Below are positions 3,618-39,883 of a stretch of 64,000 nt of DNA, one piece after another; positions within the stretch are counted from its first letter, which is position 1, and every line of letters starts with the position of its first letter. Origin of the DNA: Candidatus Eiseniibacteriota bacterium (lineage in GTDB: Bacteria; Eisenbacteria; RBG-16-71-46); contig OY970342.1 of the NCBI GenBank assembly GCA_963717505.1, positions 2,784,001 through 2,848,000 of the forward strand, written 5' to 3'. The notes beneath the pieces were generated by a model. The model searched no databases. It had not been told where the DNA came from and saw only the letters and a list, made by a program, of their open reading frames with translations. The translations under genes and the position numbers were made by a program.

Positions 3618-4751
3618 GTGAGCCGCGATCGGATCCTGGTGGTCGACGACGAGCCGGGCATGCTGCGCTCGATCGAACGCATTCTGTCTCCGCACTACGA
3701 CGTCCAGGTCGCCGGCACTCCGAGTCGCGGGCTCGAGCTGGCGGCCGAGAGCGCGCCGGATCTCGCGATCCTCGACGTCCGAATGCCCGAAATGGACGGC
3801 TTCGCCCTGATGGCCCGGTTGCTCGAGCGCGATCCGCACATGGACGCGATCATGATGACCGGCAGCGCCGACGAGCGGGACGCGCGCATGGTGCGCGCGA
3901 TCCGCGAGCGGGCCTTCTTCTTCCTGACCAAGCCCTTCGACCGCGAAGTCCTGTTGACCCTGGTCGAGCGCTGCATGGATCTGCGCCGGCTCGATGCCGA
4001 GAACCGCGCGCACGTGACACGCATCGAGCAGGAGATCGATGCGGCCCGGGTGTTCCAGCAGAGTCTGCTGCCCGAGCTGACGGCCGACGAGGACGGACTC
4101 GAGGTGGCGATCCACTACGAGCCGGGTGGCGAGCTGGGGGGCGATTTCTGCGACTACTCGTTCGGCGACTACGGCTTCGGCCTGGTGGTGGTCGACGTGT
4201 CGGGCCACGGCGCCACCGCGGCGATGCAGACCGGCATGGTCAAGCTCGCGTTCCGCGACGCGTTCGCCGACGCCATGCGCCCCGAGTCGGTCGCTCGGCG
4301 CATCGCCGAAGCCTGCCGTCTGTTCCCGCAGGGCCGGCACATGTCGGCGGTGTGCGTTCGGGTGAAAGGAGAGCGACTCGAAGTGGTGAACGCCGGGCAT
4401 CCGGACGCACTCAAGATCGGCCGCGACGGGAGCATCGAGCGGCTGGAGTCCACAGCGCCCATCGTCCACCCCGGGCTGGATCCGTGGCCCTACGAGAGTC
4501 GTCCCATTCCGTTCCACAAGGGCGACATGCTCCTGGTCTACACCGATGGGCTGATCGAGGCGCGCAACGCGGCGGAGGACGAGTACGGCCTGGATCGGCT
4601 CCGCGCCAGGGTGACCGAGTGGCGAGCCGGGAAACCCTCGGGTTCGTTGTGCGCGAGCCTGCTGGGCGCGGTGCGCGAGGACCTGGCGGCCTTCGCCGCC
4701 GGCCGACCACTCGACGACGACCTGACGCTGGCGATCGTGCGGCGAAAGTAG
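3618..4751 (+). CDS. Response regulator with SpoIIE/PP2C phosphatase output (REC-PP2C)
   Basis: ILVVDDE, LDVRMPEMDG and LTKPF receiver motifs; GGDF, DVSGHG, NAGH, YTDGL and DDLT PP2C motifs; 5 nt after the kinase. Confidence 0.92.
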   Translation: MSRDRILVVDDEPGMLRSIERILSPHYDVQVAGTPSRGLELAAESAPDLAILDVRMPEMDGFALMARLLERDPHMDAIMMTGSADERDARMVRAIRERAFFFLTKPFDREVLLTLVERCMDLRRLDAENRAHVTRIEQEIDAARVFQQSLLPELTADEDGLEVAIHYEPGGELGGDFCDYSFGDYGFGLVVVDVSGHGATAAMQTGMVKLAFRDAFADAMRPESVARRIAEACRLFPQGRHMSAVCVRVKGERLEVVNAGHPDALKIGRDGSIERLESTAPIVHPGLDPWPYESRPIPFHKGDMLLVYTDGLIEARNAAEDEYGLDRLRARVTEWRAGKPSGSLCASLLGAVREDLAAFAAGRPLDDDLTLAIVRRK

Positions 4752-6204: not shown

Positions 6205-7547
6205 TGTAGTGAGCAAGACTATCTGTCCGCATTTAGGGCGGACGGGAGTGACCGCTCCCCCTAGTGGGGCGGTTGGGTGGTATCAGGGGTTGCGAGGAGG
6301 GCCTCGCAATGCCGGCTACGCCGACCGTCCAGGAGCGGACGATGCGGGTCAGGGAAGTGCTGATGCGAGCGGTACAGCGGGAGATCAGCTGGATCCAGGC
6401 GGCGGACATTCTCGGGATCAGCGCCCGGAACATGCGGCGCTGGAAGGTGAAGTTCGAGACCGCGGGACTCGAGGGCGTGCTCGACCGGCGGACGCTGGGC
6501 CACCCGAACCCGCGGCGGGTGACTCGGGCCGAACTGGAGCGGCTGCTGGCGCTCTACCAGAAGCGCTACCAGGGGGTGAACGTGCGGCACTTCTGTGCGA
6601 TTGCCCGGCGTGAGCATGGGCTGAAGTGGTCGTACAGCTTCGTGCGACAGGCGCTGCAGGTGGCCGGGTTGATCAAGAAGCGTCGACCGCGTGGACGTCA
6701 CCGCCTGCGCCGTCCGCCGCGTGAGTGCTTTGGCGAGATGCTGCATCTGGATGGCAGCCTGCACGCGTGGCTGGCCCTGCGTCCGCACGACCGCCAGTGT
6801 TTGATCGTGGTCGTGGACGATGCGACGCGGCGGTTGCTCTACGCCCAGCTGTGCGGACACGAAGGCACCGAGCCGGTACTGGCCGCGATCCACGCGGTCG
6901 TCTCGCGCCACGGCGTGCCCCAGGCGCTGTACACCGATCGGGCCCGCTGGGCCGCGTTCACGCCTAAGAGTGGTGGACCGGTCGATCGTGACCACCCCAC
7001 CCAGGTCGGGCGCGTGCTCGCGCGCCTCGGGGTCGAGCACATCCTCGCCTACTCGCCCCAGGCCCGTGGCCGCAGCGAGCGACTCAACCGCACGCTCCAG
7101 GACCGGCTCATCCAGGAGCTGCGCCTGGCACGGATCGTCACTACCGAGCGCGCCAACGCCTTCATCACCGAGACGTTCCTCGCTCGCTACAACGAGGAGT
7201 TCGCGGTCGCGCCGGCCGAAGCGACGTCCGCCTTCGTCACCGCTGGCGGCGCCGACCTCGACCAGATCCTGTGCCACGAGGAGTCGCGCACGGTCGGCAA
7301 AGACAACACCGTACGCCTCGACGGGGTCTGCCTTCAGATCCCGAAGCAGCCCGGCCGGCCCTCCTGCGCGGGCCTCACGGTCACCGTTCGCAGGCACCTC
7401 GACCACACCCACTCCGTGTGGTGGGGCCCCCGCCGCCTCGGGCGGTTCGATGCCCGCGGCCGGGCCCTGAGGGAGGCCGCTGACCTTGCCGCCTGAAAGA
7501 GGACAGATAGTCGTGTCAAAAGCGGTCACTTAGTCTTGCCAACAACA
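6205..7547 (+). mobile_element. Insertion sequence, IS1202 family (formerly ISNCY), 1343 bp, with 17-bp target-site duplication
   Basis: Ends TGTAGTGAGCAAGACTA (6205) and TAGTCTTGCCAACAACA (to 7547) form a 14/17 inverted repeat with TGT...ACA termini. GGGCGGGCGGATTACTG flanks the element at 6188-6204 and 7548-7564. Subterminal inverted matches at 6217-6228/7501-7512 and 6247-6255/7522-7530. Confidence 0.92.
6309..7496 (+). CDS. DDE transposase (IS1202/ISNCY group, rve-type core)
   Basis: N-terminal HTH (QAADILGISARNMRRW); HLDGSLHAW, VVDDAT, LYTDR and SPQARGRSERLNRTLQDRL motifs; GAGGAGG RBS before ATG 6309. Confidence 0.93.
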   Translation: MPATPTVQERTMRVREVLMRAVQREISWIQAADILGISARNMRRWKVKFETAGLEGVLDRRTLGHPNPRRVTRAELERLLALYQKRYQGVNVRHFCAIARREHGLKWSYSFVRQALQVAGLIKKRRPRGRHRLRRPPRECFGEMLHLDGSLHAWLALRPHDRQCLIVVVDDATRRLLYAQLCGHEGTEPVLAAIHAVVSRHGVPQALYTDRARWAAFTPKSGGPVDRDHPTQVGRVLARLGVEHILAYSPQARGRSERLNRTLQDRLIQELRLARIVTTERANAFITETFLARYNEEFAVAPAEATSAFVTAGGADLDQILCHEESRTVGKDNTVRLDGVCLQIPKQPGRPSCAGLTVTVRRHLDHTHSVWWGPRRLGRFDARGRALREAADLAA

Positions 7548-7564
7548 GGGCGGGCGGATTACTG
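7548..7564. repeat. Right target-site duplication (17 bp)
   Basis: Identical to 6188-6204. Confidence 0.92.
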
Positions 7565-7605
7565 CGGGGAGGGGATGCCCGACGCGGCTACGACTGGAAC
7601 AGGGT

Positions 7606-8904
7606 TCAGCTGCCGGTGACAGCGAGCGCGGGTATTTCCGGAGCCGACCCTTCGGACGACGCCAACTCGTCCAGATCTCGGTCCAGATCGCCGCTCTCGT
7701 GCAGCTCGATCAGCGCTTCCACGACTTCCGGGAAGAACTGGGTACCGGCGTTGCGCCGCAGTTCCTGGTAGGCCTCGGAGGCGGGGAGGCCGCGACGGTA
7801 GGGCCGATCGCTGGTCATTGCGTCGAAGGCGGCGACCGCCATGATGATCCGCGCGCCGACCGGAATCCGGTCTCCGCGCAGCCCGCACGGATAGCCGCGT
7901 CCGTCCGGCTGCTCGTGATGCGCCTGGACGATCTCGGCGACGCGTTCCAGACCCGGGAGCCCCTGGACGATCTGGAAGCCGACGGTCGGGTGCGTGTTGA
8001 TCACCGCCCGTTCGCGCAGGTCGAGGGGGCGATGGCTCTGGAGGATGTCGAGGTGGATCGCGGTGCGCCCGATGTCGTGGAGCAACGCGCCGAGTTCGAT
8101 GTCGCGCAGTTCCGCCTCCACCACTCCGAGCCGTCGGGCGATGCGCACCGACCGCCGGGCCGCGCGGTTGGAATGGCCGCGCGTGTAGGGATCGAACGCG
8201 TCGATCGCAGCCATCAGCACGCGGACCGTCTGGATCTGGCCGTCGGCCACCGGCTCGTGACGCCGCGACGCGAGGCTGATGAACAGGGAAGGCAGGAGGC
8301 CGTAGACCGCGACCAGGATCGCCGCTGAGGCATCGACCATGGCGAGCACCAACCCGTAGGGCAGGATCAGCAGGTCGTGCAACAGCTCACGCGGCAGGCG
8401 ACTGTGAATCGTGGCCCACGCGCCTCGGCCCTGAGACAGGAGCGTCGCGCAGGACGCGAGCGCGGCGCGTGCGACCCAGGCGGTGACGAAGGCGCCGGCC
8501 AGAGTGGTCGCGTTCAGCCCGCCTCCGGTGGAGCTGGTTCCGAGCGCAAATCCGGTGGCGCTGACCACCAGGATGCCTTCGCCGGCGCTCGAGAGCGCTT
8601 CGGAGAGCGGACGCCGTTTCATGGCACAGGCGGCAGCTCGGCCGATTGCAGTCGCGCAGGCGGCGGGGGCCGGGCCGAGCAGCAGCAGGGCAGCGAACTC
8701 CATCGCAGGCGTCAAGACCATGCGCACCCCGGTACGGGGAATCGCGACCGCCAGGAACTCGGCCAGCGCCACCAGGCAGATCCAGGGAATGACGATCGTG
8801 GCGCCTCCGCTCCAGGTCGCGGGCGGCGCGTTCATGATTGTCAACGCCAGGGCGACGGCTCCGGCCGCAGCCAGCGTCCACTTGCCGAGGTTAGGTGTGG
8901 GCAT
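7606..8904 (-). CDS. Membrane-anchored HD-GYP domain protein (c-di-NMP phosphodiesterase-like)
   Basis: N-terminal multi-TM region; YTRGHSNR, LLHDIGR, HHEQPDGRGYP and AMTSDRPYR motifs. True start taken as MPTPNLGKW, not the 1117-aa ORF. Confidence 0.88.
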   Translation of the reverse strand: MPTPNLGKWTLAAAGAVALALTIMNAPPATWSGGATIVIPWICLVALAEFLAVAIPRTGVRMVLTPAMEFAALLLLGPAPAACATAIGRAAACAMKRRPLSEALSSAGEGILVVSATGFALGTSSTGGGLNATTLAGAFVTAWVARAALASCATLLSQGRGAWATIHSRLPRELLHDLLILPYGLVLAMVDASAAILVAVYGLLPSLFISLASRRHEPVADGQIQTVRVLMAAIDAFDPYTRGHSNRAARRSVRIARRLGVVEAELRDIELGALLHDIGRTAIHLDILQSHRPLDLRERAVINTHPTVGFQIVQGLPGLERVAEIVQAHHEQPDGRGYPCGLRGDRIPVGARIIMAVAAFDAMTSDRPYRRGLPASEAYQELRRNAGTQFFPEVVEALIELHESGDLDRDLDELASSEGSAPEIPALAVTGS

Positions 8905-8958
8905 GGGTCTCCAGTCGGGTATCCGAGGGTTCGGGGGACCCGAACGGTCTGAGGTGGG

Positions 8959-8985
8959 TTTTCGGCTGGACCCGGGGAAACCTGA
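8959..8985 (-). promoter_or_regulatory. Putative sigma28 (FliA/WhiG)-like promoter for the membrane HD-GYP gene
   Basis: Minus strand reads TCAGGTTT-N11-GCCGAAAA; the sigma28 consensus is TAAAGTTT-N11-GCCGATAA. Confidence 0.55.
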
Positions 8986-9018
8986 GCGAGAATTCCGGCC
9001 CCAACCTGCGGACGGTCC

Positions 9019-9047
9019 TAAAGCTGGGCAGCCCCAGGTGCCGAATA
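9019..9047 (+). promoter_or_regulatory. Putative sigma28-like promoter for the GAF-HD-GYP gene
   Basis: TAAAG-N16-GCCGAATA, ending 7 nt before the GTG start at 9055. Confidence 0.5.
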
Positions 9048-9054
9048 TACCGGG

Positions 9055-10323
9055 GTGGAATTCCTCATTCGCCCATTCCGAAGAGACGCCGATCGTCCGA
9101 TCCTGGTCGACGACACCGGCGGCGAGCCGACGGTGGTTGCGTCCCGCCCGCTGGCCGAAGTGCGTGGCGCCCAGGAAGAGATCGTCCGTTCCGACGCCAA
9201 ACTGGCCGAGCTGATCCTGAATCTGGTCCACGAGACCGCGCGCGCCAGCAGCGACGAGTCGCAGCTCATGGCGGTGATCGCCGAGTTCGCGTTCCGGGCG
9301 TTCCCGGGCGCCACCCACCACGTGCTCGCGGTCAAGGACGCGAACGAACCCGGCGGCTTCCGCACGCTGATCGCCCGCTCGCGGAGCGGCGACGAGCCCG
9401 ACGTGACACTGAGCCGCACCATCGTCTCGCGGGTCATCAGCGAGGGTTTGGCGGTGCTGGTCACCCACACTGAACAGGACATGGCCAAGGTCCACAGCAT
9501 TGCACTCTCGGGGCTGCAGACCGCGATCTGTGCACCCCTGACCCAGGGCGAGACCGCGTTCGGCATCGTCCAGCTCGACATTCGCAATCCCGGCAAGGGC
9601 GTGTTCACCAGCCGCGACGTCGACCTCTTGTCGGTGTTCGCCAGTCAGGTCAGCCTCGCGCTCGACCACCTGCACCTGTTCCAGCAGCAGCGCCGAGCCC
9701 TGCAGTCGACGATCAATGCCCTGGTTCACTCGCTGACCCTCAAGGATCCCGAGACCGCGCATCACTCGGAACGGGTCCAGGCCGTGGCGCTCGAGATCGG
9801 ACGCGAGATGGGTTTGTCGGGCCGCGAGCTCGAGATCATCGGGGTCGCCGCGATCCTCCACGACCTGGGCAAACAGGGCGTGCGCGATGACGTCTTGTTC
9901 AAGCCCGACCGGCTGACCGAGGGCGAGCGGGAAGAGATGGCGCACCACGCGGCCTACACCCAGACCATCCTCGACAAGATCGAGTACCCGGAGCAGCTCC
10001 GGGAGGTCCCCAAGATCGCTGCCTACCACCACGAGAAGATGGACGGCAGCGGGCCATTCGGCATTCCCGGTCCCGAGATCCCGCGCGCCTCGCGCATCAT
10101 CTCGGTTGCCGACGTGTTCGATGCGCTCATGTCGCCGCGCTCGTACAAGGATCCAATGTCGGTCGACCAGGTGGTAGGGATCCTCGAGAAGGGCAAGGGC
10201 GTCGACTGGGATCCGCAAGTGGTCAGCGCTCTGCGGCAGATCATCCCGGATCTCGAAGCATCGCTCTACGCTGCGTCGGCGTCCGCCGCCGAGGCCAGCG
10301 AGCCGCTCGACGAAGCGGCCTGA
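9055..10323 (+). CDS. GAF + HD-GYP domain protein
   Basis: GAF region (LSRTIVSRV...AICAPL...GIVQLD...FTSRDVDLL); HHSERV, LHDLGK, HHEKMDGSGP and VADVFDAL motifs. Confidence 0.9.
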   Translation: MEFLIRPFRRDADRPILVDDTGGEPTVVASRPLAEVRGAQEEIVRSDAKLAELILNLVHETARASSDESQLMAVIAEFAFRAFPGATHHVLAVKDANEPGGFRTLIARSRSGDEPDVTLSRTIVSRVISEGLAVLVTHTEQDMAKVHSIALSGLQTAICAPLTQGETAFGIVQLDIRNPGKGVFTSRDVDLLSVFASQVSLALDHLHLFQQQRRALQSTINALVHSLTLKDPETAHHSERVQAVALEIGREMGLSGRELEIIGVAAILHDLGKQGVRDDVLFKPDRLTEGEREEMAHHAAYTQTILDKIEYPEQLREVPKIAAYHHEKMDGSGPFGIPGPEIPRASRIISVADVFDALMSPRSYKDPMSVDQVVGILEKGKGVDWDPQVVSALRQIIPDLEASLYAASASAAEASEPLDEAA

Positions 10324-10400
10324 CGCTCGTCGCACCCGCAGAACCCCCGCATTCTCGCCCGCATCCCGCCAACGAATCGACTTTGCCTGGCCGCCCCCGA

Positions 10401-11471
10401 TCAGGCGGCGAAGTCCTGGGGCAGATACTTCTCGAAGGCGATGCGGTCGATGGCGTGCTCGTAGGCTTCCTCGCCGCTGATCGTTTCCTTCTTGACCATT
10501 TCGCCGAGCACGGAGTCGAGCGCCTGCATGCCGATCCGGCCGCCGGCCTGGATCGCGTTGGTCAGCTTGTGGCTGTTGCCGCTGCGGATCATCGAGGACA
10601 CCGCGTGGGTGGTGACCATGACCTCGGCGGCGACCACCCGACCCGAGCCGTCGGAGCGCCGCACCAGCTGCTGTGAGACCACCAGCCGCAAGCTGTCGGC
10701 GAGCATGGCGCGGATTTGGTCCTGGCGCCGAGGCGGGAAGACGTTGACGATCCGGTCGATCGAGCGCACGGCGCCGTTGGTGTGCAGCGTGCCGAACACC
10801 TGAATGCCGGTCTCGGCGGCGGTCAGCGCCAGGCTGATGGTCTCCAGGTCGCGCATTTCGCCGAGCAGGATGACGTCCGGATCCTCGCGCACGGCGCTGC
10901 GCAGCGCCTCGGAGAAGCTGGGCACGTGGGCGCCGACCTCGCGCTGGGTGAACAGGCACTTCTTGACCTGGTGGACGAACTCGATCGGGTCTTCGATCGT
11001 GATGATGTGTCCGTGGCGCATGCCGTTGATGTAGTCGAGCATGCTGGCCAGCGTCGTCGACTTGCCCGATCCGGTCGGACCGGTGACCAGAGTCAGCCCC
11101 TTCGGCACCTCGATGATGTTCTTGACCACCGTCGGAATGCCGATCGCGTCGATGTTCGGGATGTCGGTCGGGATCACGCGAAAAGCGGCGGCGAGGCCGG
11201 ACGAATGGCGGTAGACGTTGACCCGGAATCGCCCGAGCGACTCCGAGGAGTAGGCGAGATCGACCGCGTACTGGCTGGCCAGGGTCTCTTTGTGCTCGCG
11301 ACTCAAGATTTCGACCAGTAGGTCTTCGACGTCGGTGGTCGACAGGTCGCGGAACCGAACCGGGGCCAGATTGCCGTTGACCCGGATGCGCGGCACCTGC
11401 CCCGAGACCAGATGCAGGTCGGATCCGCCCTGCTTTACCACCAGCTCGAGGAACGTGTCGATGCGTTTCAT
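10401..11471 (-). CDS. pilT: PilT/PilU-family type IV pilus retraction ATPase
   Basis: GSDLHL, Walker A GPTGSGKST, TIEDPIE, REDPDVILLGEMRD and GTLHT motifs; start MKRIDTFL. Confidence 0.92.
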   Translation of the reverse strand: MKRIDTFLELVVKQGGSDLHLVSGQVPRIRVNGNLAPVRFRDLSTTDVEDLLVEILSREHKETLASQYAVDLAYSSESLGRFRVNVYRHSSGLAAAFRVIPTDIPNIDAIGIPTVVKNIIEVPKGLTLVTGPTGSGKSTTLASMLDYINGMRHGHIITIEDPIEFVHQVKKCLFTQREVGAHVPSFSEALRSAVREDPDVILLGEMRDLETISLALTAAETGIQVFGTLHTNGAVRSIDRIVNVFPPRRQDQIRAMLADSLRLVVSQQLVRRSDGSGRVVAAEVMVTTHAVSSMIRSGNSHKLTNAIQAGGRIGMQALDSVLGEMVKKETISGEEAYEHAIDRIAFEKYLPQDFAA

Positions 11472-11473
11472 GG

Positions 11474-12592
11474 CTACGCCGCCCGTCCTTCGGCGTCGCC
11501 GCTCGGGGCGCCGGCCATCAGGTTCAACAGCTCGGGACGGGTCACGAACGGCGCGAAGCCGAATTTGTCGGTGGCCTTGAGGAATGCCTCGTCCGGGTCG
11601 ATGTCGCCGGCGCGCACCATGGCGAGCAGCGACTGGTCCATCAGCTGCATGCCCATGCGGCGACCGGTGATGATGGCCCCCGGGATCTGGAACGTCTTGC
11701 CTTCGCGGATCAACTGGGCGACCGCCAGGGTGACCACGAGGATCTCGGCGGCCGCTCGGCGTCCGCGCCCGTCGGCGACGCGGACCAGCTCCTGGCTGAT
11801 CACGCACTTGAGGTTGTCCGCCAGCGAGTGACGCACCTGCGCCTGGGCGTCGACCGGCAGGGCGTCGACCATGCGATCGATGGTCGCGGCCGCACCTCGG
11901 GTGTGCAGCGTGCCGAACACCAAGTGGCCGGTTTCGGCGGCCTCGAGCGCCAGCGCGATGGTTTCCGAATCGCGCAGCTCACCGACCAGGATCACGTCCG
12001 GATCCTCACGTAGCGCCGAACGCAGGCCGTCTTTGAACGAGAGGACGTGGGTGCCGACCTCGCGCTGGACGACCAGTGACTTGGCGCTCTCGTACTGGAA
12101 CTCGATCGGCTCCTCGAGCGTGAGCACCATGAGATCCTGCGTCTGGTTGATCTCGTTGATCATGGCCGCGAGCGTCGTGGACTTGCCGGTGCCCGTCGCT
12201 CCGGTGACCAGGACCAGGCCCGAACTGAAGCTGGTGAATCGCGAGAGAATGTTCGGCATCCCGAGGTCGGCCAGCCGCGGCACCGCGCTCGGGACGACGC
12301 GGCAGGAGATGCCGATGCCGCGCAGATGTCGGCAGACGTTGATCCGGAATCGCCCGACCGCTTCCGCGGCGTACGACAGGTCGACGCTGCCGCGCTCGTG
12401 GAACACGCTGCGCTGCGATTCGCTCAGGATCTCGTCGATGATGCCTTCGGCCTCTTCCTGGGTCAGCGAGCGGTACTTGATCGGGACCAGCTGGCCGTCG
12501 AGGCGCACCAGCGGCGGTTGGCCGACGCTGAAGTGGATGTCGGAGCCGCCCTGCTCCCGGCCGATCTGCAGGAACGCATCGATGCGCGGCAT
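11474..12592 (-). CDS. pilT: PilT/PilU-family type IV pilus retraction ATPase (second paralog)
   Basis: GSDIH, GATGTGKST, TLEEPIE, REDPDVILVGELRD, GTLHT and AQLIREGK motifs. Confidence 0.92.
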   Translation of the reverse strand: MPRIDAFLQIGREQGGSDIHFSVGQPPLVRLDGQLVPIKYRSLTQEEAEGIIDEILSESQRSVFHERGSVDLSYAAEAVGRFRINVCRHLRGIGISCRVVPSAVPRLADLGMPNILSRFTSFSSGLVLVTGATGTGKSTTLAAMINEINQTQDLMVLTLEEPIEFQYESAKSLVVQREVGTHVLSFKDGLRSALREDPDVILVGELRDSETIALALEAAETGHLVFGTLHTRGAAATIDRMVDALPVDAQAQVRHSLADNLKCVISQELVRVADGRGRRAAAEILVVTLAVAQLIREGKTFQIPGAIITGRRMGMQLMDQSLLAMVRAGDIDPDEAFLKATDKFGFAPFVTRPELLNLMAGAPSGDAEGRAA

Positions 12593-12609
12593 GGCTTCCT
12601 AGGGCGCGG

Positions 12610-14979
12610 TCAGGCCGCGGCCCGCAACATCCCGAGCAAGTCCAGGGCGGACGCGGGCCGGTCCTTGGGGTCTTTTGCGATCGCGCGCATGACGAAGCGC
12701 TCCACGTGTTCGGGAACGTCCGGAACCAGCTCGCGCAGCGGCGTCACCTGGCCTTCGACGTGGCGGAAGAGCACGTTCACCGCGTTCTCTCCGTAGAACG
12801 CCTGCCTTCCGGAGAGCATCTCGTAGAGCACGACGCCAAACGAGTAGATGTCGGCGCGGCCATCGATGTCGGCGCCGGTGATCTGCTCGGGGGAGATGTA
12901 TTCCGGCGTGCCGACCAGGATGCCGCTCTTGGTCAGTCGTGATCCGGCGCCGGTGCCGGCGGAGGCAAGGCCGAAGTCGACGATCTTGGTCTGGTCGTCC
13001 TTGCCGATCAGGATGTTCGCCGGCTTGATGTCGCGATGGATGACCGAGACTTCGTGGGCCGCGGCCAGCCCTTCACACACCTGACAGGCGATCTTGAGCG
13101 TGCGGTCGACGGGGAGCGTGCCTTGGAGCTTGAGCAGCCGACCGAGATCCTGCGACTCGAAGTACTCCATCGAAATCGCGTGCTGGCCGCCGAGATCGAC
13201 CAGGTCGTAGATGCGGATCACGTTCGGATGGCTGATGCGCCGCGTGTACTTGAGCTCCTGAACGAAGCGCCGAATCATGCTCTCGTCGAGCGCCAGGTGC
13301 GGGCTCAGGACCTTGAGCACCAGTTCCTCGCGCACGATGACGTCCTCGACCAGGTAGACGGTGCCGAAGCCGCCGCCACCGATCTTGCGCACGACTCGGT
13401 AGCGATCGAGCAGCCGAACGCCGGGCGGCAGGTTCTGGTAGTCGCGGACAGGGGCGCTCGGGATCGGGGAAGCGGATGGCACCGGGGACGCGCTCCGGTC
13501 CTGAGGCGTCGGCGAGGGACGACCCTCGATGTCGGAGCGGCCCGGGTCCTGGTCGGGATCGGAGCGGCGCTTGCGCACCTCGAGCGGGCGCAGGCCGTCG
13601 CGGTCGCGCGCGGCCCCGGTGGCGTCGAGCGCCTCCTGGACCAGCCGGCGCTCCATCTCGGGCATCTCGACCTTGGCCAGCGCGGTGAGCGCATGGATCG
13701 CCTCGCGTCGGACCTCGGCGCTCTCGGATTGGGTCATGCGATAGACCGGGTCGACCGCGCGCGGATCGCCGAGTGCCCCCAGTGCGCGCAGGCACAGGGG
13801 AATCGCCCGGGTCTCGCGTTCCATGAGCCGCATGATCGGGACGACCGCGCGCTCGTCGCCGGTTTTCGCCAGGGCATCGATGGCGCGCTCGTGCACCCAC
13901 CAGTCCTGGTCGTCGAGCGCCTTGATCAGAGGTTCGACGGCGCGTTCATCGGGAACCGTGTTGAGAATCTCGACCGCGTAGCGGCGGATGTACTCGTCCT
14001 TGTCGTCGAGCAGCGAAATGACCGCGTCGACGACGCGATCCCCGCCCAGTGAGCCGAGCGCATCGGCGGCGCGTACGCGCACCCACCAGTCGGCGTCGCG
14101 TAGGGCCGACACCAGGTCCTTGATGGCGTCGACCGTGACCACCTGATTGAGCACCTCGACCGCCCCGCGGCGCGCCTGCTCCGATTCGTCCTTGAGGACC
14201 TCGACCAGGTGCGGCACGGCGGAAACGTCGCCGATCGCGATCAGGGCGTCGATCGCCGCCGTGTGGATCTTGATGTCCGGATCGCGCAGGTTCTGGCACA
14301 GGCCGGGGATCGCGGCCACGGCCTTGAGTCGCCCCAGGCACTGCACCGCCTCGAGGCGCACGCCGCGATTCTCGTCCTTGAGCAGGCGAATGACCGTCTC
14401 GATTCCCGCTTCGCTCGGGAAGCGCGCCAGGAGTTTGGCCATGTTCAGGCGCAGCCACCACTCGGCGTGGACCGCGAGACGGATCGCTTCGGCGGCGATG
14501 CTGCTGTCCGCGTGCTTCTCGAGAATGCGGAAGATGACGCCGCGGGCGTCCTTGCTCAGGTCCGGCAGCAGGCTGATCAGCATCCGCGGCTGAATGCCCT
14601 TCATCTGCGCCGAGAGGATGGCCTCCAACCGCGCCTTGGAGACCCGCGAGTCGGTGAACAGCTCGAGCAGGCGCGTCGGGTCGTAGTTCTGGGAGCGAGA
14701 CAGGGCCGTGCTGACGCCGTCGACGGTCTGGGGATCGGTCGAGGTCAGGGCATCGAAGAAGATCGGGAGCGTCTCGTTGTTGACCAGGCGCTCGAGGACC
14801 TCGAGTGCGGCGTCACGGGCTTCCGCCGAATGGAGCGAATCGAGGACCGAGCGGATCGAGGCGGGGCCGAGCGAGACCAGCTGATCCTTGACGTCGCCAA
14901 GCCGGCCGTCCGGTCCGGCCGTGGCCGAACCGAGCTGCTTCGCGATATGACCCGCCTGGATCTTTTTGAACAGGCGCAT
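12610..14979 (-). CDS. HEAT-repeat (PBS lyase-like) + Hanks-type Ser/Thr protein kinase, cytoplasmic
   Basis: Repeats such as LRDADWWVRVRAADALG; kinase motifs IGGGGFGTVY, HRDIKPAN, DFGLA and GTPEYISPEQ; no TM segment evident. Confidence 0.92.
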   Translation of the reverse strand: MRLFKKIQAGHIAKQLGSATAGPDGRLGDVKDQLVSLGPASIRSVLDSLHSAEARDAALEVLERLVNNETLPIFFDALTSTDPQTVDGVSTALSRSQNYDPTRLLELFTDSRVSKARLEAILSAQMKGIQPRMLISLLPDLSKDARGVIFRILEKHADSSIAAEAIRLAVHAEWWLRLNMAKLLARFPSEAGIETVIRLLKDENRGVRLEAVQCLGRLKAVAAIPGLCQNLRDPDIKIHTAAIDALIAIGDVSAVPHLVEVLKDESEQARRGAVEVLNQVVTVDAIKDLVSALRDADWWVRVRAADALGSLGGDRVVDAVISLLDDKDEYIRRYAVEILNTVPDERAVEPLIKALDDQDWWVHERAIDALAKTGDERAVVPIMRLMERETRAIPLCLRALGALGDPRAVDPVYRMTQSESAEVRREAIHALTALAKVEMPEMERRLVQEALDATGAARDRDGLRPLEVRKRRSDPDQDPGRSDIEGRPSPTPQDRSASPVPSASPIPSAPVRDYQNLPPGVRLLDRYRVVRKIGGGGFGTVYLVEDVIVREELVLKVLSPHLALDESMIRRFVQELKYTRRISHPNVIRIYDLVDLGGQHAISMEYFESQDLGRLLKLQGTLPVDRTLKIACQVCEGLAAAHEVSVIHRDIKPANILIGKDDQTKIVDFGLASAGTGAGSRLTKSGILVGTPEYISPEQITGADIDGRADIYSFGVVLYEMLSGRQAFYGENAVNVLFRHVEGQVTPLRELVPDVPEHVERFVMRAIAKDPKDRPASALDLLGMLRAAA

Positions 14980-15014
14980 TCACGCTCCATCGGCCCGGCT
15001 GCCGAGGCCCGAAC

Positions 15015-15596
15015 CTATCGGATGATGAACCAGGCCGCCGCCGCGCCCACCGACGTCGCGACGATCAGCGCGATGCCGATGGCGATCAGCGTCGCGGCTC
15101 GAGACCAGCGTTTCTCCGGGGTCATGGGCGCCCGGCCGCGGGAGGCAGGGTCGGGTCCTGTCGGGGCCACGATGTCCTGCTCGCGCGAGATGTTCATCAG
15201 GTGATTGATCTCGGCGGTCGACAGCATCATCGTCGGCTGAGCGGCGTCGCCAGCGGGCGCTGCCGCCGGTTCCGTGGTCGCGCGACGATCGCGCTCCAGG
15301 CTGATCCACAACGAGAACTTGCCGAGGCGGATCACGTCGTTGTTGTACAAGTAGGCCGTCTTGATCCGCTCCTCGTTCAGGAACGTGCCGTTCGCGCTGT
15401 TGAGGTCGCGTACTGTGTAGTGCCCTTTGGGCGTTCGCTCGAACTGCAGATGAATGCGCGAGATGCTGGAGTTGTCCAGCACGATGTCGCACTCATCGCT
15501 GCGCCCGCAGGTGATGACCGGTTTGTCGAACGTGTAGCTCTTGAGGGGACGCCCCTTGAGCGACAGCCGGATGCGAAGGACATTGTCCTCAGCCAT
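15015..15596 (-). CDS. FHA domain protein with C-terminal transmembrane anchor
   Basis: CGRSDECDIVLDNSSISRIH and DLNSANGTFLN FHA motifs; hydrophobic C-terminus; GGAG upstream of ATG 15596. Confidence 0.88.
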   Translation of the reverse strand: MAEDNVLRIRLSLKGRPLKSYTFDKPVITCGRSDECDIVLDNSSISRIHLQFERTPKGHYTVRDLNSANGTFLNEERIKTAYLYNNDVIRLGKFSLWISLERDRRATTEPAAAPAGDAAQPTMMLSTAEINHLMNISREQDIVAPTGPDPASRGRAPMTPEKRWSRAATLIAIGIALIVATSVGAAAAWFIIR

Positions 15597-15691
15597 TCGA
15601 TCAGCTCCATTGCAGATTGCCCGGGGGAGCCCATTTGGCCCCAACCGGCCGGTTTCACGCGGCGCACGTGCGTGATTTGCCGGCACTTCCC

Positions 15692-15720
15692 CTATCGGCC
15701 GGGGCGGGATCGTGACTTGA
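15692..15720 (-). promoter_or_regulatory. Putative sigma28-like promoter for the FHA-kinase-PilT-PilT operon
   Basis: Minus strand reads TCAAG-N16-GCCGATAG. Confidence 0.55.
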
Positions 15721-15738
15721 GGGCAAAAAGGGGCAGGA

Positions 15739-16530
15739 CTAGGCCCCGAGGCGGTCCCGGAGCTCCCGTGCCCGGGTCCGGCTGACCGGAACCTCGGTTC
15801 GGGCGGAATCGCGCAGCTGGAGCCGGTAGGTGCCGGCAAATGCGGGCCGCAGGGCGGCTGCCCAGTCCAGGTTGACGATTGCCGAGCGATGGACCCGGGC
15901 GAAGCGGGCGGGATCGAGCCGCCGCTCGAGCTGATCGAGCGTGAAGTTGACGTAGTGCCGGTCGCGCTCGGTGGCGACGAACACGAGTTTGTCGTCGGCG
16001 CCAAACCACAGCACTTCCTCGGCCCTGAGGATGACCTGCCGGGCGCCGACCCGAACAGTGAATCGTTCGAGCCAGGGCGCTGACGCGCGCCCGGCGTCGA
16101 GGCCGGTCAGAAGTTCGGTCAATCGCCGCGACAGATCCTCGGGATGCTCGAGTTCCCGGCGCGCCCGCGCCAGGGCCTCGGCGAGCCGCTCGGCGCGAAA
16201 CGGCTTGAGCAGGTAGTCGACCGCGTTCTCCTCGAACGCGCGCACCGCGTAGTGGTCGAAGGCGGTCACGAACACCACCGCCGGGCGTGGGTCGAGCGAG
16301 GCGAGCAGCTGGAAGCCATCCTCTTCGGGCATCTGGATGTCGAGCAGCACGACGTCCGGGTGAAGCTCGGCGATCCGGCGGCGCGCCTCGGCCGCGGACC
16401 CCGCCTCGCCGACCAGGGTGACGCCGGGAAGCTCGCCCAGGATGCGGCGGGCGCGCGCTCGCGCCAGCGGCTCGTCGTCGACCACCAGAACGCGTAAGGC
16501 CCGATCGGAGCCCACCGGCGGGGGAATCAT
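15739..16530 (-). CDS. LytTR-family response regulator
   Basis: VLVVDDEPLAR, LLDIQMP and DYLLKP receiver motifs; LytTR motif FARVHRSAIVN...VPVSR. Confidence 0.95.
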   Translation of the reverse strand: MIPPPVGSDRALRVLVVDDEPLARARARRILGELPGVTLVGEAGSAAEARRRIAELHPDVVLLDIQMPEEDGFQLLASLDPRPAVVFVTAFDHYAVRAFEENAVDYLLKPFRAERLAEALARARRELEHPEDLSRRLTELLTGLDAGRASAPWLERFTVRVGARQVILRAEEVLWFGADDKLVFVATERDRHYVNFTLDQLERRLDPARFARVHRSAIVNLDWAAALRPAFAGTYRLQLRDSARTEVPVSRTRARELRDRLGA

Positions 16531-16541
16531 GGCCTAGGCGT

Positions 16542-18746
16542 TTACCACGTCAGCGCGAAACCCGCCACGACCATCCGGCGACTGAAGTACGACAGCATCT
16601 CGTGACGTTCGGTGTAGTCCTCGTTGTACGTGTATTCCAGGATGTTCGGAGTATCCAGAACGTTCATCGCCTCAAGGTAGAGGACGCTCAGGCCACTCTC
16701 GGGTAGCCCAAGGCCGGCGGGCATGGTGAACAGCCGGGTGAGCCGGACGTCCAGTCGATGGTACTGGGGCATCTCCGCCGAGTACTCCGGTCCCTCGATC
16801 GGGCGCCACAGATCACGGCTCGGGTCGTACGTGGCGCCGACCACCGGCGTGTAGGGACGACCGGTGGTGAAGCCGAACCGACCGCCCATCTGCCAGAAGC
16901 CCGGAAGCTGGACCGATGCGACCAGGGTCAGCGAGTGGCGCACGCCGTAGGGCGAAGGAACTTCGGTGGTGACGTCGCCTTCGAGGCGGCGGCTGTCGAG
17001 ATAGCCGTACGAAATCCATCCGGTGTAGGGGCCGGACCGGGTGCGCGCGAACAGATCGACGCCGTTGGCTTCGCCATGGCCCTCGTTGGCGTAGTAAGTC
17101 TCGGCCGATTGAGTGACCAGATCGTCGTAGCGCTTGCGATAGAACTCGATCCGCACGTTCGACTCCTCGGCCAGCCACTCGTAGCCGGCAATCACATGGT
17201 CGGCGGCGAGGGGTCCCAGGGTGGGATTGCCGTAGACCGGATCGAGGTATTCGGGGCTCGCCAGCTGATGATAGCGGCCCGCCGCGACGCGCACGGTCTG
17301 GCGGTCGGAGATGCGCCAGGCGAGTGCCGCGCGCGGATCGATCGTCCAGGTGTCCACGAGCGAGGCGCGATCGGCGCGCACGCCGAGCGTCGCGTACACC
17401 GGGCCCCACAGGCGGATCTTGTCTTCGATGTAGCCGCCGGGCATCGACTGACGCGGCCGTGTGTCGTGATAGCGCACCGGTGCGCCCGGCTGGAGGTCGG
17501 TGCTGTCGGCCGGGTAGACGCCGACCAGGTCGTCGGCGCGCCGCGCGAAACGGAAGCCGGTCGACAGCTCGTGCTGCGGCGAGGCAGCCCACACCGCGTC
17601 GAGCTGCGCCTGGATTCGCTTTTCTCGCTCGGTCGCCGCCATCGGGCCGAACGTCCAATCCGACAGGTACTGCTGATATCCGACGTGTCCGCGCAGGGCG
17701 ATGCTGCGGCCGATGCCTTCCTGCCACTGCACCGCGGCGATTTGATTGCGCGACTCACCAGTGTAGACACCCGAGAAGTTGAGATAGTCGGAGCTGACGC
17801 TGGCCCTGTCGCCCGATCCCAGATAGAGGAACGACAATCGGCCGGTGGGCGAGTAGCGGTACAGCAATCGTCCGGCAGCGTCGGCCGAGCGCGGCGCCGA
17901 TACGTAGTCGCGCGAAGCACCGTAGAGCTGCTCGAGCAGCTGCACGTTGCTGGCGCGCACCGAGCCGACCAGCGAGACCTTGTCTGGCACCAGCGCCCAG
18001 CTGGTCGACACGCCGCCGCCCACCAGATTCGCGCCGACCGTGACCGTGCGCAGGTTCATCGGGTCCTGGGTCTCGATGTCCATCACTCCGGAAAGGGCCC
18101 CGCCGTAGCGGGCCGAGAACCCGCCGCTCGAGAAGAAGGCACTCTTGAGCATGTAGGCGTCGAGGGTCGAGAACAGCCCGCCCGAAGCGCCTTCATAGTG
18201 GTAGGGGTGGCCGATCTCGCCACCGTCGAGCCGGACCACGGTCTCCGAGGGATCGCCGCCGCGGACGAACAGCGCAGCGCCCTCGTTGGGTGCGTTGATG
18301 CCCGGCATCGCGCGCAGCGATTGAAACACGTCGGCGGCTCCGCCCGGCGTGGTGAATACATCGATCCGGCGCAAGGTCGCACCCTCGCTCTTGCCGGACT
18401 TGCCGAACGACGAGGCGGCGACCACGACTTCACTGACCGGCACCGGGGCTTCGCGCAACACGATCCGGAGCGGTGCGATGCCGGCCGCAATCACCAGATC
18501 GAGTCGCACCGGCTGGTAGCCGATCTGGGTCGCTTCGAGCACCACCGGCCCCTCGGGCAGTTCCAGCGCGAAAGCGCCCTGAGCGTTGGTCACCGCACCG
18601 GCGCGGAGCGCAGACACCCGCACGTTGGCCAGCTCGACGGGACGCCCGGCCGGGTCGACCACGATTCCGGTGACGCGCGCCGCCCACGCCGGGGCAGCGC
18701 ACAGCGCCACCAGGACGACCGCGAGTACGGCGCGCGCCGGGATCAT
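16542..18746 (-). CDS. TonB-dependent receptor with N-terminal carboxypeptidase-regulatory-like domain
   Basis: Signal peptide MIPARAVL...AWA; plug motifs LRAMPGI, LFVRGG and GGFSARYGGALSGV; barrel ending in aromatic W; ATGA overlap with the upstream TPR gene. Confidence 0.9.
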   Translation of the reverse strand: MIPARAVLAVVLVALCAAPAWAARVTGIVVDPAGRPVELANVRVSALRAGAVTNAQGAFALELPEGPVVLEATQIGYQPVRLDLVIAAGIAPLRIVLREAPVPVSEVVVAASSFGKSGKSEGATLRRIDVFTTPGGAADVFQSLRAMPGINAPNEGAALFVRGGDPSETVVRLDGGEIGHPYHYEGASGGLFSTLDAYMLKSAFFSSGGFSARYGGALSGVMDIETQDPMNLRTVTVGANLVGGGVSTSWALVPDKVSLVGSVRASNVQLLEQLYGASRDYVSAPRSADAAGRLLYRYSPTGRLSFLYLGSGDRASVSSDYLNFSGVYTGESRNQIAAVQWQEGIGRSIALRGHVGYQQYLSDWTFGPMAATEREKRIQAQLDAVWAASPQHELSTGFRFARRADDLVGVYPADSTDLQPGAPVRYHDTRPRQSMPGGYIEDKIRLWGPVYATLGVRADRASLVDTWTIDPRAALAWRISDRQTVRVAAGRYHQLASPEYLDPVYGNPTLGPLAADHVIAGYEWLAEESNVRIEFYRKRYDDLVTQSAETYYANEGHGEANGVDLFARTRSGPYTGWISYGYLDSRRLEGDVTTEVPSPYGVRHSLTLVASVQLPGFWQMGGRFGFTTGRPYTPVVGATYDPSRDLWRPIEGPEYSAEMPQYHRLDVRLTRLFTMPAGLGLPESGLSVLYLEAMNVLDTPNILEYTYNEDYTERHEMLSYFSRRMVVAGFALTW

Positions 18747-19528
18747 GACTCGGTTCCTCCTCCCGCCAGCTTGTCCAGCTCGGGCAGCAGGCTGTAGCGC
18801 ACCCAGTTGTTCCTCGGATTGATCTCGAGGGCCTTCTCGTAGTGCGCGCGCGCTGCGTTCCAATCCTTGAGCTTGGCCGCCGAGCGGCCGGCCCAGACGT
18901 GGGCGTCGTCGTAGCCCCAGTCGATCGAGGTGCTGTCGCCGGGTGCCGCCGCCGCGAACAACGTGATCGCGCGTTCGAGTTGAGGCAGTGCCTTCTTGGC
19001 GCCGCCGCCCACGAAACCCGGTTTGTTGTAGGTGCCGATGCCCTCCAGCAGTGCCACCCGCGGATTCTCGGGGGCGATACCCTTGGCCTGGCCCTCGATG
19101 CCCGAGATCTCGCCACCCAGCGACATCGCCTTCATCGGCGACATCGAAATCGAAAGTCCGAGCAGGCCCGCCTTGAGCGACATGCACTCGGCGGACTGTG
19201 GCGAGGCCGCCAGCGCCTGATCGAGATGCGCGACCGCGTCGTCGCAATAGCGCTGCGCCTGTTTCTTGTCCTTCGTCATGACGCGCGGCACCAGCCGGTA
19301 GGAGGCGAGTGCCACCCAGTAGTGCAGCTCGACCGACTTGGGATCGGCCGCCGACATGCTCGCCAGCTGTTCGCGCACGGCCACCAGCTTGTGGACCGAG
19401 TCGAAGGCCGCGGCGTAGGTCAGCGTGCGCGCCGTGGCCAGCTCAGCCGGGTCGGTGGCGCTGGCCGGTTGCGCCGTAGCGATCAGCGCCAGGGTTGCGA
19501 GAACGAGGATGCTGCGTTCGGGTTTCAT
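18743..19528 (-). CDS. Secreted tetratricopeptide-repeat protein
   Basis: Signal peptide; helical repeats (PENPRVALLEG, ARAHYEKALEINPRN); PGFVGGG motif; translationally coupled on both sides. Confidence 0.8.
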   Translation of the reverse strand: MKPERSILVLATLALIATAQPASATDPAELATARTLTYAAAFDSVHKLVAVREQLASMSAADPKSVELHYWVALASYRLVPRVMTKDKKQAQRYCDDAVAHLDQALAASPQSAECMSLKAGLLGLSISMSPMKAMSLGGEISGIEGQAKGIAPENPRVALLEGIGTYNKPGFVGGGAKKALPQLERAITLFAAAAPGDSTSIDWGYDDAHVWAGRSAAKLKDWNAARAHYEKALEINPRNNWVRYSLLPELDKLAGGGTES

Positions 19529-20643: not shown

Positions 20644-20698
20644 GGCTTCCTCCTCGACGCAATCTACGGAGAAGTCCATGGGGCGGCGACGGTTCGCC

Positions 20699-20732
20699 GG
20701 ATGAACGGTCGGATCAGGGGGATGAACGGTCG
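20699..20732 (-). promoter_or_regulatory. Tandem LytTR-binding direct repeat upstream of the LytS operon
   Basis: GGATGAACGGTCG at 20699-20711 and 20720-20732 (21-bp period). The minus-strand core ACCGTTCATC resembles the AlgR box ACCGTTCGTC. A -10-like TAGATT lies at 20661-20666 (minus). Confidence 0.75.
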
Positions 20733-20806
20733 CGGGCGGGGGCGGACACCTCGGCTCCGCGGGGTCGTGGGCGTTGGGAGGCCCCCGGGCCTGGTCGCCC
20801 GAGGGG

Positions 20807-20834
20807 TGAAGTCCCAGGGCCGAGTCGCCGAAAA
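20807..20834 (+). promoter_or_regulatory. Possible sigma28-like promoter for the beta-barrel gene
   Basis: TGAAG-N15-GCCGAAAA. Confidence 0.4.
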
Positions 20835-20925
20835 CCTTCGATGCCCCCGAGGACGGGCGGCCGCACGCGTTCAGCGCTCGGTGCCGACCCCTCGGCCCAA
20901 TCCTGAATCCACCACGGAGGCAAAC

Positions 20926-23458: not shown

Positions 23459-23488
23459 CGCGCGTGCGGGCCGTCGGCGGCGCTTGGT

Positions 23489-24685: not shown

Positions 24686-24908
24686 GCGGGCCTCCAGGCT
24701 GCCGCGCGCACGGCGCGGGGACATTCGATGGGTGTGCGGGCCGGGCAGTATAGGAGGTTTGCACAGCGTGCGCACGAGGGCCGCCGGTCTTGTCGGGGCA
24801 ACTCCGCGGTGGCAACCTGATCGCCGATCAGGAACCGGTTGAGGCCGTTGATCAGCGGCGGCCGCAGGTGAGCCGCAATAGAGGGCTCGATACGATAGGA
24901 GCGCAACG

Positions 24909-32213: not shown

Positions 32214-32342
32214 GGCTGGACCGCGGCGTTTCGGCCGGTTTGCGGTCGATCGCCAAGATGCGAGCGAAAGGGTTTGCCGGGCTGCAGGTGGGTCCGATAA
32301 CCTAGCTGCGTCCCCTCGACCCCAACCAGTGGAGTCCCCCCG

Positions 32343-39861: not shown

Positions 39862-39883
39862 GGTCCGGGCCGCTCGGCCGCCC

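Follow-up and report, generated by a model that had tools for sequence, protein, structure and literature searches.

A cassette of six genes was found in a 64,000-nucleotide stretch of DNA (the window, genome positions 2784001-2848000) from a Candidatus Eisenbacteria metagenome-assembled genome (MAG), which consists of one 4.16-Mb contig and is 86.7% complete. The cassette encodes a membrane-anchored FHA protein, a HEAT-repeat Ser/Thr kinase, two PilT-family ATPases (T1 and T2), and two HD-GYP proteins, and we consider it very probable that this six-gene region encodes one functional system. What the system does is much less certain. With belief and doubt about evenly balanced, we read it as a switch, made of threonine phosphorylation and cyclic di-GMP (c-di-GMP), on an accessory dual PilT-type motor, which would probably act on pili encoded elsewhere in the genome. 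The mechanism, including the gating of the motor by phosphorylation and c-di-GMP and the T1/T2 heteromer, is one that we infer. Catalytic or ligand-binding residues are retained in the kinase, the FHA domain, the two ATPases, and the membrane HD-GYP protein.

The G+C content of the window is 63-72% and spurious long open reading frames (ORFs) are abundant; gene models were set from Pfam and NCBIfam matches, reading of the translations, and comparison with orthologues. The features of the cassette are as follows (aa, amino acids; TM, transmembrane).

15730-15748, minus strand: terminator-like hairpin and T-run directly 3' of the stop of a LytTR gene (sequence scan)
15015-15596, minus strand: tail-anchored FHA protein, 193 aa (Pfam FHA, 3.2e-20; C-terminal TM helix)
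12610-14979, minus strand: HEAT-repeat Ser/Thr kinase, 789 aa (Pfam HEAT_2, 2e-56; Pkinase, 6.8e-50)
11474-12592, minus strand: T1, PilT-family ATPase, 372 aa (TIGR01420, 413 bits)
10401-11471, minus strand: T2, PilT-family ATPase, 356 aa (TIGR01420, 436 bits)
9055-10323, plus strand: GAF-HD-GYP protein, 422 aa, convergent with T2 (Pfam GAF_2 and HD_5)
8905-9054: divergent intergenic region of 150 bp between the HD-GYP genes, with presumed promoters (gene coordinates)
7606-8904, minus strand: membrane HD-GYP protein, 432 aa, divergent from the GAF-HD-GYP gene (Pfam HD_5, 6.7e-32)

An earlier note on this DNA had described six genes with these domains on these strands, with the operon converging on the GAF-HD-GYP gene, and the Pfam and NCBIfam matches and the translations bear this description out except at two gene ends. 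The start of the FHA gene, which had been placed at about 15720, was corrected to 15596; an ORF that extends further, to 16004, runs into the LytTR gene upstream. The long ORF of 7606-10959 is an artefact of the high G+C content, and the real HD-GYP gene starts at 8904. On the minus strand, the gaps are 35 nt between the FHA and kinase genes, 17 nt between the kinase gene and T1, and 2 nt between T1 and T2, and all six genes are full length relative to their orthologues. The hairpin at 15730-15748 suggests a likely upstream boundary with the FHA gene as the first gene of the operon, its position alone being suggestive, since terminator-like sites occur at chance level in the region (3 seen vs. 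3.4 expected). No sigma-70-like promoter consensus was found in a promoter scan of the region. A search of sequencing runs listed no RNA run with the sequence, and the best DNA runs contained only 0.24 and 0.21 of its words.

Comparison with other genomes showed that kinase-T1-T2 is the invariant core of the cassette, that in Eisenbacteria this core is almost always preceded by the FHA gene, and that the HD-GYP/PP2C arm is frequent but exchangeable. The kinase has full-length orthologues in relatives, and the surroundings of 13 of these were taken, with one unpublished genome (G026) left out; T1 and T2 follow the kinase in 12/12 loci in which the contig runs past the kinase (in L037 the contig ends inside the kinase gene), and the FHA gene precedes the kinase in 11/11 loci in which the contig reaches upstream. 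A second set, of 14 loci from farther relatives in the same class, has T1 and T2 after the kinase in every case, an FHA gene in 12, and an HD-GYP gene within 6 kb in all 14. A pattern scan of GTDB species genomes yielded at least 560 stretches that code for relatives of the query, of which the best 80 were analyzed, several of them shared with the sets of 12 and 14 loci. Among these best 80, the kinase-T1-T2 order is found in 64/64 public loci with at least 2.4 kb of sequence after the kinase; a strict synteny script passed 63 of them, and L138 failed solely because the start of T2 overlaps T1. Gammaproteobacteria MAGs, labelled Chromatiales, Thiohalomonadales, or Thiohalophilus, account for 19 of the best 80, and their proteins are about 40% (kinase) and 52-59% (T1 and T2) identical to those of the window. 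The earlier note had staked its proposal on the gene order being kept in other genomes, and kept it is, across sets that overlap in part and that include Gammaproteobacteria. The spacing of the genes is also tight elsewhere, with a median of 0 nt between T1 and T2 (4-nt overlaps in 12/26 loci) and of 5 nt between the kinase gene and T1, so T1 and T2 are predicted to be translationally coupled in many loci.

The cassette is widespread in both groups. A kinase match (E<=1e-90) was found in 70/206 Eisenbacteria species genomes and in 40/121 of the high-quality ones, with a distribution that is patchy by family (42/88 in f1, 7/8 in f15, 0/41 in f18), and a match at E<=1e-120 was found in 56/75 genomes of the order of one gammaproteobacterial carrier. 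The phylum tallies (kinase orthologues, the 206-genome counts, and PilM below) include the unpublished genome G026, on which no claim rests. In a protein database, 603 kinase clusters scored E<=1e-80 among 8000 candidates scored, all of them generically named. An FHA gene lies beside the module in all gammaproteobacterial loci with enough sequence and in 32 of the 34 Eisenbacteria-type loci that are readable upstream; L067 and L071 gave no FHA match. In its gammaproteobacterial form the cassette consists of a divergent gene for a fused FHA-GAF-HD-GYP protein, a small conserved protein, kinase-T1-T2, and the FHA protein, and the fusion is found in L138 and in about 10 of the 19 gammaproteobacterial loci. 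The small protein of 150-157 aa (orf157) is encoded directly upstream of the kinase (L138 7461-7934, plus strand, and 17 further gammaproteobacterial loci), has no significant Pfam family, and is absent from the Eisenbacteria form. We considered orf157 as a PilZ receptor, which is unsupported: its structural model (pLDDT, the predicted local distance difference test score, 88) shows two small beta-barrels, for which local PDB matches are confined to Sm/Hfq-like folds (probability 0.97-0.99, E about 0.45). PelG lies beside the gammaproteobacterial module in 1 locus only. A strongly diverged cassette was seen in locus L075 of genome G136 (6882-10954), where the kinase is 635 aa long with fewer HEAT repeats, and T1 and T2 share just 47% and 38% identity with their counterparts in the window, with very long branches and odd composition.

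T1 and T2 are members of the PilT family but not canonical PilT or PilU proteins. Their scores of 413 and 436 bits lie well above the TIGR01420 cut-off of 319.1 bits in NCBIfam, and Walker A, Asp box, Walker B, and His box are conserved at a level of at least 95% or at least 70% in 68 T1 and 68 T2 sequences, bar the first His of T2; the two ATPases are intact, as the earlier note had claimed. In the consensus of the 68 T2 sequences, the first His-box histidine is replaced by Ile (ETGI.V..TLHT). The AIRNLIRE motif reads AVAQLIREGK in T1, where it is partly kept, and AVSSMIRSGN in T2, where it is lost, and T1 carries a conserved C-terminal extension (DK..F..FVT.P.LL). The closest solved structure for both is Pseudomonas aeruginosa PilT 3jvu (4.9e-92 for T1 and 9.3e-100 for T2), with PilU 9n32 further away. 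T1 and T2 are 46.6% identical to each other; their identities are 45.8% and 47.8% to canonical gammaproteobacterial PilT and 32.0% and 36.1% to gammaproteobacterial PilU, respectively.

A tree of 49 PilT-family rows was built with IQ-TREE (LG+G4), and a quick tree gave the same result. The rows were the five from the window's own genome, all copies of four gammaproteobacterial carriers and of one carrier labelled 'Latescibacterota', and the module copies of 11 other loci; three rows were removed, namely the two of L075, which have long branches, and a copy that contains masked residues. In this tree, a check that the earlier note had proposed, T1 and T2 form clades of their own (17 rows each, with support of 100/100 and 100/97), both of which mix Eisenbacteria and gammaproteobacterial copies and are separate from the gammaproteobacterial PilT (100/100) and PilU (100/99) clades. 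T1 and T2 are thus not canonical PilT, since they are placed apart from the PilT clade and their AIRNLIRE motif has diverged, and not canonical PilU, whose clade is separate. Taken together, these results show that T1 and T2 are two distinct PilT subfamilies and that they are ancient paralogues which are always inherited together.

The kinase consists of a HEAT/alphaRep-like solenoid (residues about 1-450), a Pro/Ser-rich linker, and a Hanks kinase domain (527-776). By PDB comparison, the HEAT part resembles alphaRep and PBS-lyase HEAT proteins. The kinase domain has all the hallmarks of a Hanks-type Ser/Thr kinase, which are the G-loop, the VAIK Lys, the alphaC Glu, HRD, DFG, and APE, and the G-loop, K556, E575, HRD648-650, N655, DFG668-670, and APE are invariant in 16 and in 20 orthologues. 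No TM segment was seen when the translation was read, and no TM scan was run on the kinase; the kinase is predicted to be soluble and to have no sensor domain of its own. A predicted complex of T1, T2, and the HEAT core (kinase residues 185-452) scored 0.05 and 0.17 vs. a mark of 0.32, values that do not speak for binding or against it.

In the FHA protein, the FHA domain (residues 1-102) is followed by a disordered linker, a short helix, and a C-terminal TM helix (166-192), and the AF2 model (pLDDT 82) has a confident beta-sandwich over residues 1-102. The GR, SxxH, and NG motifs are present, and the signature residues G31, R32, S46, H49, N69, and G70 are invariant in an alignment of 18 sequences, so the domain has the signature for phosphothreonine binding and is predicted to bind phosphothreonine. 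The C-terminal TM helix is found in 35/36 FHA orthologues, and through it the protein is predicted to sit at the inner membrane. A T-x-[VIM]-[LIM] motif follows the FHA domain in 36/36 Eisenbacteria orthologues, and EPTMF[ILV] stands at the equivalent place in 16/17 gammaproteobacterial FHA proteins. In the window's protein this motif is T122-x-x-L125, of which T122 and L125 are invariant in the alignment of 18 sequences, and in the AF2 model T122 falls in the disordered linker between the FHA domain and the short helix. Since pT-x-x-L/I is the classical preferred ligand of FHA domains, the TxxL/I motif is likely a phospho-site, for which T122 is the candidate residue. A precedent is Bdellovibrio DgcB, an FHA-GGDEF protein that is described as being switched by its own phosphothreonine tail, pT-S-I-V, which is read by its FHA domain (PMC6733907).

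The two HD-GYP proteins differ in their motifs. The membrane HD-GYP protein has about 6-7 hydrophobic segments by hydropathy, followed by a complete HD-GYP domain (HHEQPDGRGYP), and its GYP is intact in 12/12 orthologues (HHEQPDGxGYP); its motifs are those of HD-GYP c-di-GMP phosphodiesterases and it is predicted to be such an enzyme. No Pfam family was found for its TM part even at E<=5. The MASE10 sensor with six TM helices is reported to occur with HD-GYP and PP2C outputs (bioRxiv 10.1101/2021.11.05.467447), and kinship of this TM part to MASE10 is a lead only. The GAF-HD-GYP protein keeps the metal ligands (H/HD/H/HH/D), and in it GYP is replaced by GPF (motif HHEKMDGSGPFG), so it does not match HHExxDGxGYP; GPF or GPL is found in 13/22 orthologues and GTY or GPY in 2, with the other 7 giving no match to the pattern used. 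It may be a weak enzyme, have another substrate, or be regulatory.

The layout around the HD-GYP genes was tallied in 39 non-gammaproteobacterial loci with at least 3 kb after T2 and in 16 gammaproteobacterial loci with enough sequence. An HD-GYP gene is adjacent in 32 of the 39, with the window's layout (convergent GAF-HD-GYP and divergent HD-GYP) in 18 and co-directional in 14. In many Eisenbacteria loci the HD-GYP protein after T2 is fused to PP2C (TM-HD-GYP-PP2C of 741-751 aa, HD-GYP-PP2C of 527 aa), and where it is unfused a PP2C gene directly follows the HD-GYP gene, as in the close relatives L027 and L073. A PP2C match was found in 32/107 module loci, of which 27 are non-gammaproteobacterial (fused or adjacent to HD-GYP) and 5 are gammaproteobacterial (weaker, and upstream). 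The membrane HD-GYP gene is followed directly by an IS481-like transposase gene (6264-7496, plus strand; HTH_28/HTH_32/LZ_Tnp_IS481, weak rve), of which the genome has a single copy and which occupies exactly the PP2C position of L027 and L073. A search of the first 12 kb of the window for a PP2C remnant was negative, and the genome has its nearest PP2C homologues at 470 kb, 1061 kb, and 2491 kb. L100, one of the 7 non-gammaproteobacterial loci that lack an HD-GYP gene after T2, has a 415-aa protein (13041-14288, plus strand) without a Pfam family at that position. Four PP2C/SpoIIE-type genes lie elsewhere in the window (3618-4751, plus strand, with REC; 21533-22738, minus strand, with no sensor; 39794-42178, plus strand, with GAF; 51678-54458, plus strand, with PDZ-GAF); four such genes in 64 kb point to very dense Ser/Thr phospho-signalling in this organism.

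The earlier note had reported no pilus structural gene in the 64 kb, and the whole genome agrees: when it was searched with T2SSE, T2SSF, secretin, PilM_2, and the N_methyl motif of prepilins, all matches other than T1 and T2 fell outside the window, and so did the further prepilin motifs. Two pilus/T2SS clusters were found elsewhere in the genome (T2SS, type II secretion system).

Cluster A, 95-106 kb of the genome: PilT-like 95246, PilB 96877, PilC 98329, pilins 99.6-100.5 kb, PilM 102339, secretin 105820
Cluster B (pilus/T2SS-like), genome 2988563-3002741, about 141 kb downstream of the window: PilB/GspE, PilT-like, PilC, PilM, secretin

The PilT-like gene of cluster B is broken into several frames (2989797-2990817). 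Five genes of the genome exceed the TIGR01420 cut-off, namely T1, T2, the cluster A copy, which adjoins pilB-pilC, and two orphans at 321 kb and 2391 kb, which lie among housekeeping genes with no kinase or FHA gene nearby. The earlier note would have given up its proposal if T1 and T2 were the only canonical pilT/pilU pair of the genome and showed no interaction with the kinase or the FHA protein; three further intact TIGR01420 members and one frameshifted copy are present. Likewise, four Gammaproteobacteria MAGs retain an adjacent pilT-pilU pair besides the module pair. PilM is found in 196/206 genomes of the phylum and in 66/70 with the module, and the module genomes with no PilM match (G030, G031, G037, and G143) are 53-90% complete.

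In the mechanism that we propose, the HEAT-repeat kinase would have as its substrate either T122 in the membrane-anchored FHA protein or the kinase's own activation loop. Contacts between phosphothreonine and FHA would then build a scaffold at the membrane, by which the T1/T2 motor is recruited or released, and PP2C would reset this phospho-switch. The fusions FHA-GAF-HD-GYP and HD-GYP-PP2C link threonine-phosphorylation parts to HD-GYP, and because FHA and PP2C fusions elsewhere point that way, the HD-GYP enzymes may be docked on the same phospho-scaffold, where they would lower local c-di-GMP and thus couple pilus dynamics to the state of the kinase. The only candidates for sensors would be the multi-TM domain of the membrane HD-GYP protein and the GAF domain. 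T1 and T2 would work jointly like PilT with PilU, T2 maybe as the PilT-like ring that binds the machine and T1 as its helper. T1 may dock on T2 through its C-terminal extension, in the way that PilU is reported to dock on PilT through its C-terminus (bioRxiv 10.1101/2025.10.30.685630). The pair would then serve as an accessory motor for retraction (or against extension), engaged under certain conditions, on the type IVa pilus machines whose genes lie outside the window.

Several points weigh against this mechanism. It is by family membership alone that T1 and T2 would be tied to pili, and since PilM is near-universal in the phylum, its co-occurrence with the module is uninformative. The His box and AIRNLIRE carry functional weight in PilT proteins; because T2 lacks the first His-box histidine and AIRNLIRE has diverged in both, classical retraction activity is not assured. 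An HD-GYP gene downstream of T2 is absent in 7/39 non-gammaproteobacterial and 16/16 gammaproteobacterial loci, and since so many loci have none there, the c-di-GMP arm would be accessory rather than core. The cassette showed no c-di-GMP receptor (PilZ, MshEN), and no PP2C gene adjoins it in the window. Lastly, the GAF-HD-GYP protein lacks the GYP tyrosine, which is described as contacting c-di-GMP (bioRxiv 10.1101/2021.11.05.467447).

We regard it as unlikely that T1 and T2 drive a non-pilus target, which would be either a stand-alone membrane machine organised by the FHA protein or another type-IV-filament-like or secretion apparatus, with the kinase, FHA, and HD-GYP proteins as its control layer. 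Such a role would fit the separation of the T1 and T2 clades from canonical PilT and PilU, the diverged AIRNLIRE and altered T2 His box, the lack of any pilus gene inside the cassette in every locus set compared, and the presence in the genome of other PilT-family genes, one of them beside pilB-pilC. However, T1 and T2 score far above the type IVa cut-off of TIGR01420 (413 and 436 vs. 319 bits) and are 46-48% identical to canonical gammaproteobacterial PilT, their best solved relatives are all pilus retraction ATPases, and no alternative platform protein is conserved in the cassette. A bolder form of the same idea, which we hold to be just as doubtful, is that T1 and T2 define a new class of PilT-type double motor with a role other than serving the classical pilus. 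It would be built on a phosphothreonine scaffold (the tail-anchored FHA protein with its TxxL phosphorylated by the operon's HEAT-repeat kinase) with HD-GYP and PP2C docked, as a self-contained machine that Ser/Thr phosphorylation and c-di-GMP would gate in Eisenbacteria and sediment Gammaproteobacteria alike.

The reading that the genes are mere neighbours, with T1 and T2 as ordinary retraction ATPases and the kinase, FHA, and HD-GYP proteins regulating unrelated targets, is strongly disfavoured and highly improbable. Hanks kinases are indeed numerous, with dozens per Eisenbacteria genome (up to 25 or more among the matches listed), and the window alone has four PP2C/SpoIIE genes. In contrast, the order is kept in 64/64 loci of two phyla at 40-55% protein identity, starts and stops of the genes overlap, the same parts recur rearranged and fused, and the kinase orthologue group always has T1 and T2 adjoining in the loci examined. 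Least probable of all is an anti-phage defence system built on the Ser/Thr kinase, since the matches to PADLOC PD-T4-6 (3e-83), mad6, and the NCBIfam MADS6/PglW models involve the kinase domain only, PADLOC 2.0 gave no match for the FHA protein or either HD-GYP protein and a trivial P-loop fragment match for T1 and T2, no nuclease, methylase, or other effector is present, the single-copy IS481-like transposase is the only mobile gene nearby, and the distribution is lineage-wide (56/75 genomes of one order) rather than the patchy, island-like one typical of defence genes.

Upstream of the cassette, within 15739-21126 on the minus strand, lie genes for a LytTR response regulator (15739-16530), a TonB-dependent-receptor-like outer-membrane protein (16542-19247), a TPR protein (18743-19528), and a LytS-type histidine kinase (19525-21126). 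No match to the LytTR, TonB-receptor-like, or LytS flanking genes was found beside the cassette in any related locus compared. Fragments, or genes split over neighbouring ORFs that lie in different frames, were seen in the window for acyl-CoA dehydrogenase (23355-25135, minus strand), gamma-glutamyltranspeptidase (30495-32305, plus strand), and malate synthase (a fragment, 47513-48262, minus strand), and elsewhere in the genome for biotin carboxylase (L003 10980-12885). Several split genes, together with 86.7% completeness for a single 4.16-Mb contig, suggest that these are not true pseudogenes but products of indel errors in a long-read assembly, and single-base errors are possible.

Among known systems, the cassette was compared with the H1 type VI secretion system (T6SS) of P. 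aeruginosa, in which the kinase PpkA, the PP2C phosphatase PppA, and Fha1 reportedly switch a membrane-associated nanomachine with a hexameric ATPase post-translationally. In both, a Hanks kinase and an FHA protein (and PP2C in relatives of the window) are encoded with a hexameric-ATPase machine. In contrast, the cassette has no T6SS genes, its ATPases are of PilT type and not ClpV, it includes HD-GYP enzymes, and its kinase appears soluble, with HEAT repeats and no periplasmic sensor. With no adjacent PP2C gene in the window and no T6SS family in a Pfam scan of the window's ORFs of at least 200 aa, the cassette would work like the T6SS threonine-phosphorylation pathway without being a member of it.

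The PilT-PilU pairs of P. aeruginosa, Vibrio cholerae, Acinetobacter baylyi, and Myxococcus xanthus resemble T1 and T2 in being adjacent, co-inherited TIGR01420 ATPases with intact Walker and Asp-box motifs, one of which has a conserved C-terminal extension (PilU there, T1 here). Unlike these, T1 and T2 are by phylogeny neither PilT nor PilU, their carriers also keep a canonical pilT-pilU pair or other pilT genes, and they are always preceded by the HEAT-repeat kinase and nearly always have the FHA protein beside them; to our knowledge, neither a kinase nor an FHA association is known for PilT/PilU. M. xanthus MXAN_6705/6706 are reported as adjacent PilT paralogues, with a partial S-motility defect upon deletion of 6706 (PMC13584747), and the neighbouring MXAN_6704 is given in PMC4048283 as a GNAT protein, not a kinase.

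Three other systems share part of the logic, as far as the portions of the sources at hand describe them. In DgcB, an FHA domain reads pT-x-x-[I/V/L] on the same protein, and an unidentified Ser/Thr kinase is coupled to c-di-GMP turnover and pilus-dependent behaviour (PMC6733907). DgcB differs in having a cyclase in place of the HD-GYP phosphodiesterase, in its kinase, which here is in the same operon, and in its FHA fusion, which the cassette has only in Gammaproteobacteria. Xanthomonas RpfG, an HD-GYP protein functionally connected to pilus retraction ATPases, is described as reaching PilT/PilU through GGDEF and PilZ proteins (PMC3749722); that system uses a two-component phosphorelay and unlinked genes, whereas the cassette has no GGDEF or PilZ gene, a Ser/Thr phosphorylation input, and contiguous genes. 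In Sulfolobus, ArnA (FHA), ArnB, and ArnC are alike in that a Hanks-type kinase and an FHA protein regulate a type-IV-filament machine, and differ in being archaeal, in acting on archaellum expression (PMC6509490, PMC12852372), and in having no known PilT pair or c-di-GMP enzymes. As the earlier note had supposed, no description of this architecture was found in a search of open-licence PMC papers and bioRxiv preprints, which left most subscription journals outside. The cassette is apparently undescribed, and none of the closest known systems has its composition.

Pilus retraction motors are among the strongest molecular motors, and their control has so far been known via c-di-GMP receptors and two-component systems. 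The cassette is common, with about one third of Eisenbacteria species genomes and about three quarters of one gammaproteobacterial order carrying it, and it defines two new PilT subfamilies. The proposed mechanism makes predictions that can be tested directly, namely phosphorylation of T122, binding by the FHA domain, joint assembly of T1 and T2, and docking of the HD-GYP proteins. If it is true, these bacteria would have a dedicated, operon-encoded Ser/Thr-kinase/FHA/PP2C switch on a private pair of PilT paralogues, together with c-di-GMP phosphodiesterases. This would be a concrete case of cross-talk between Hanks kinases and c-di-GMP and a new control logic for type IV filament machines.

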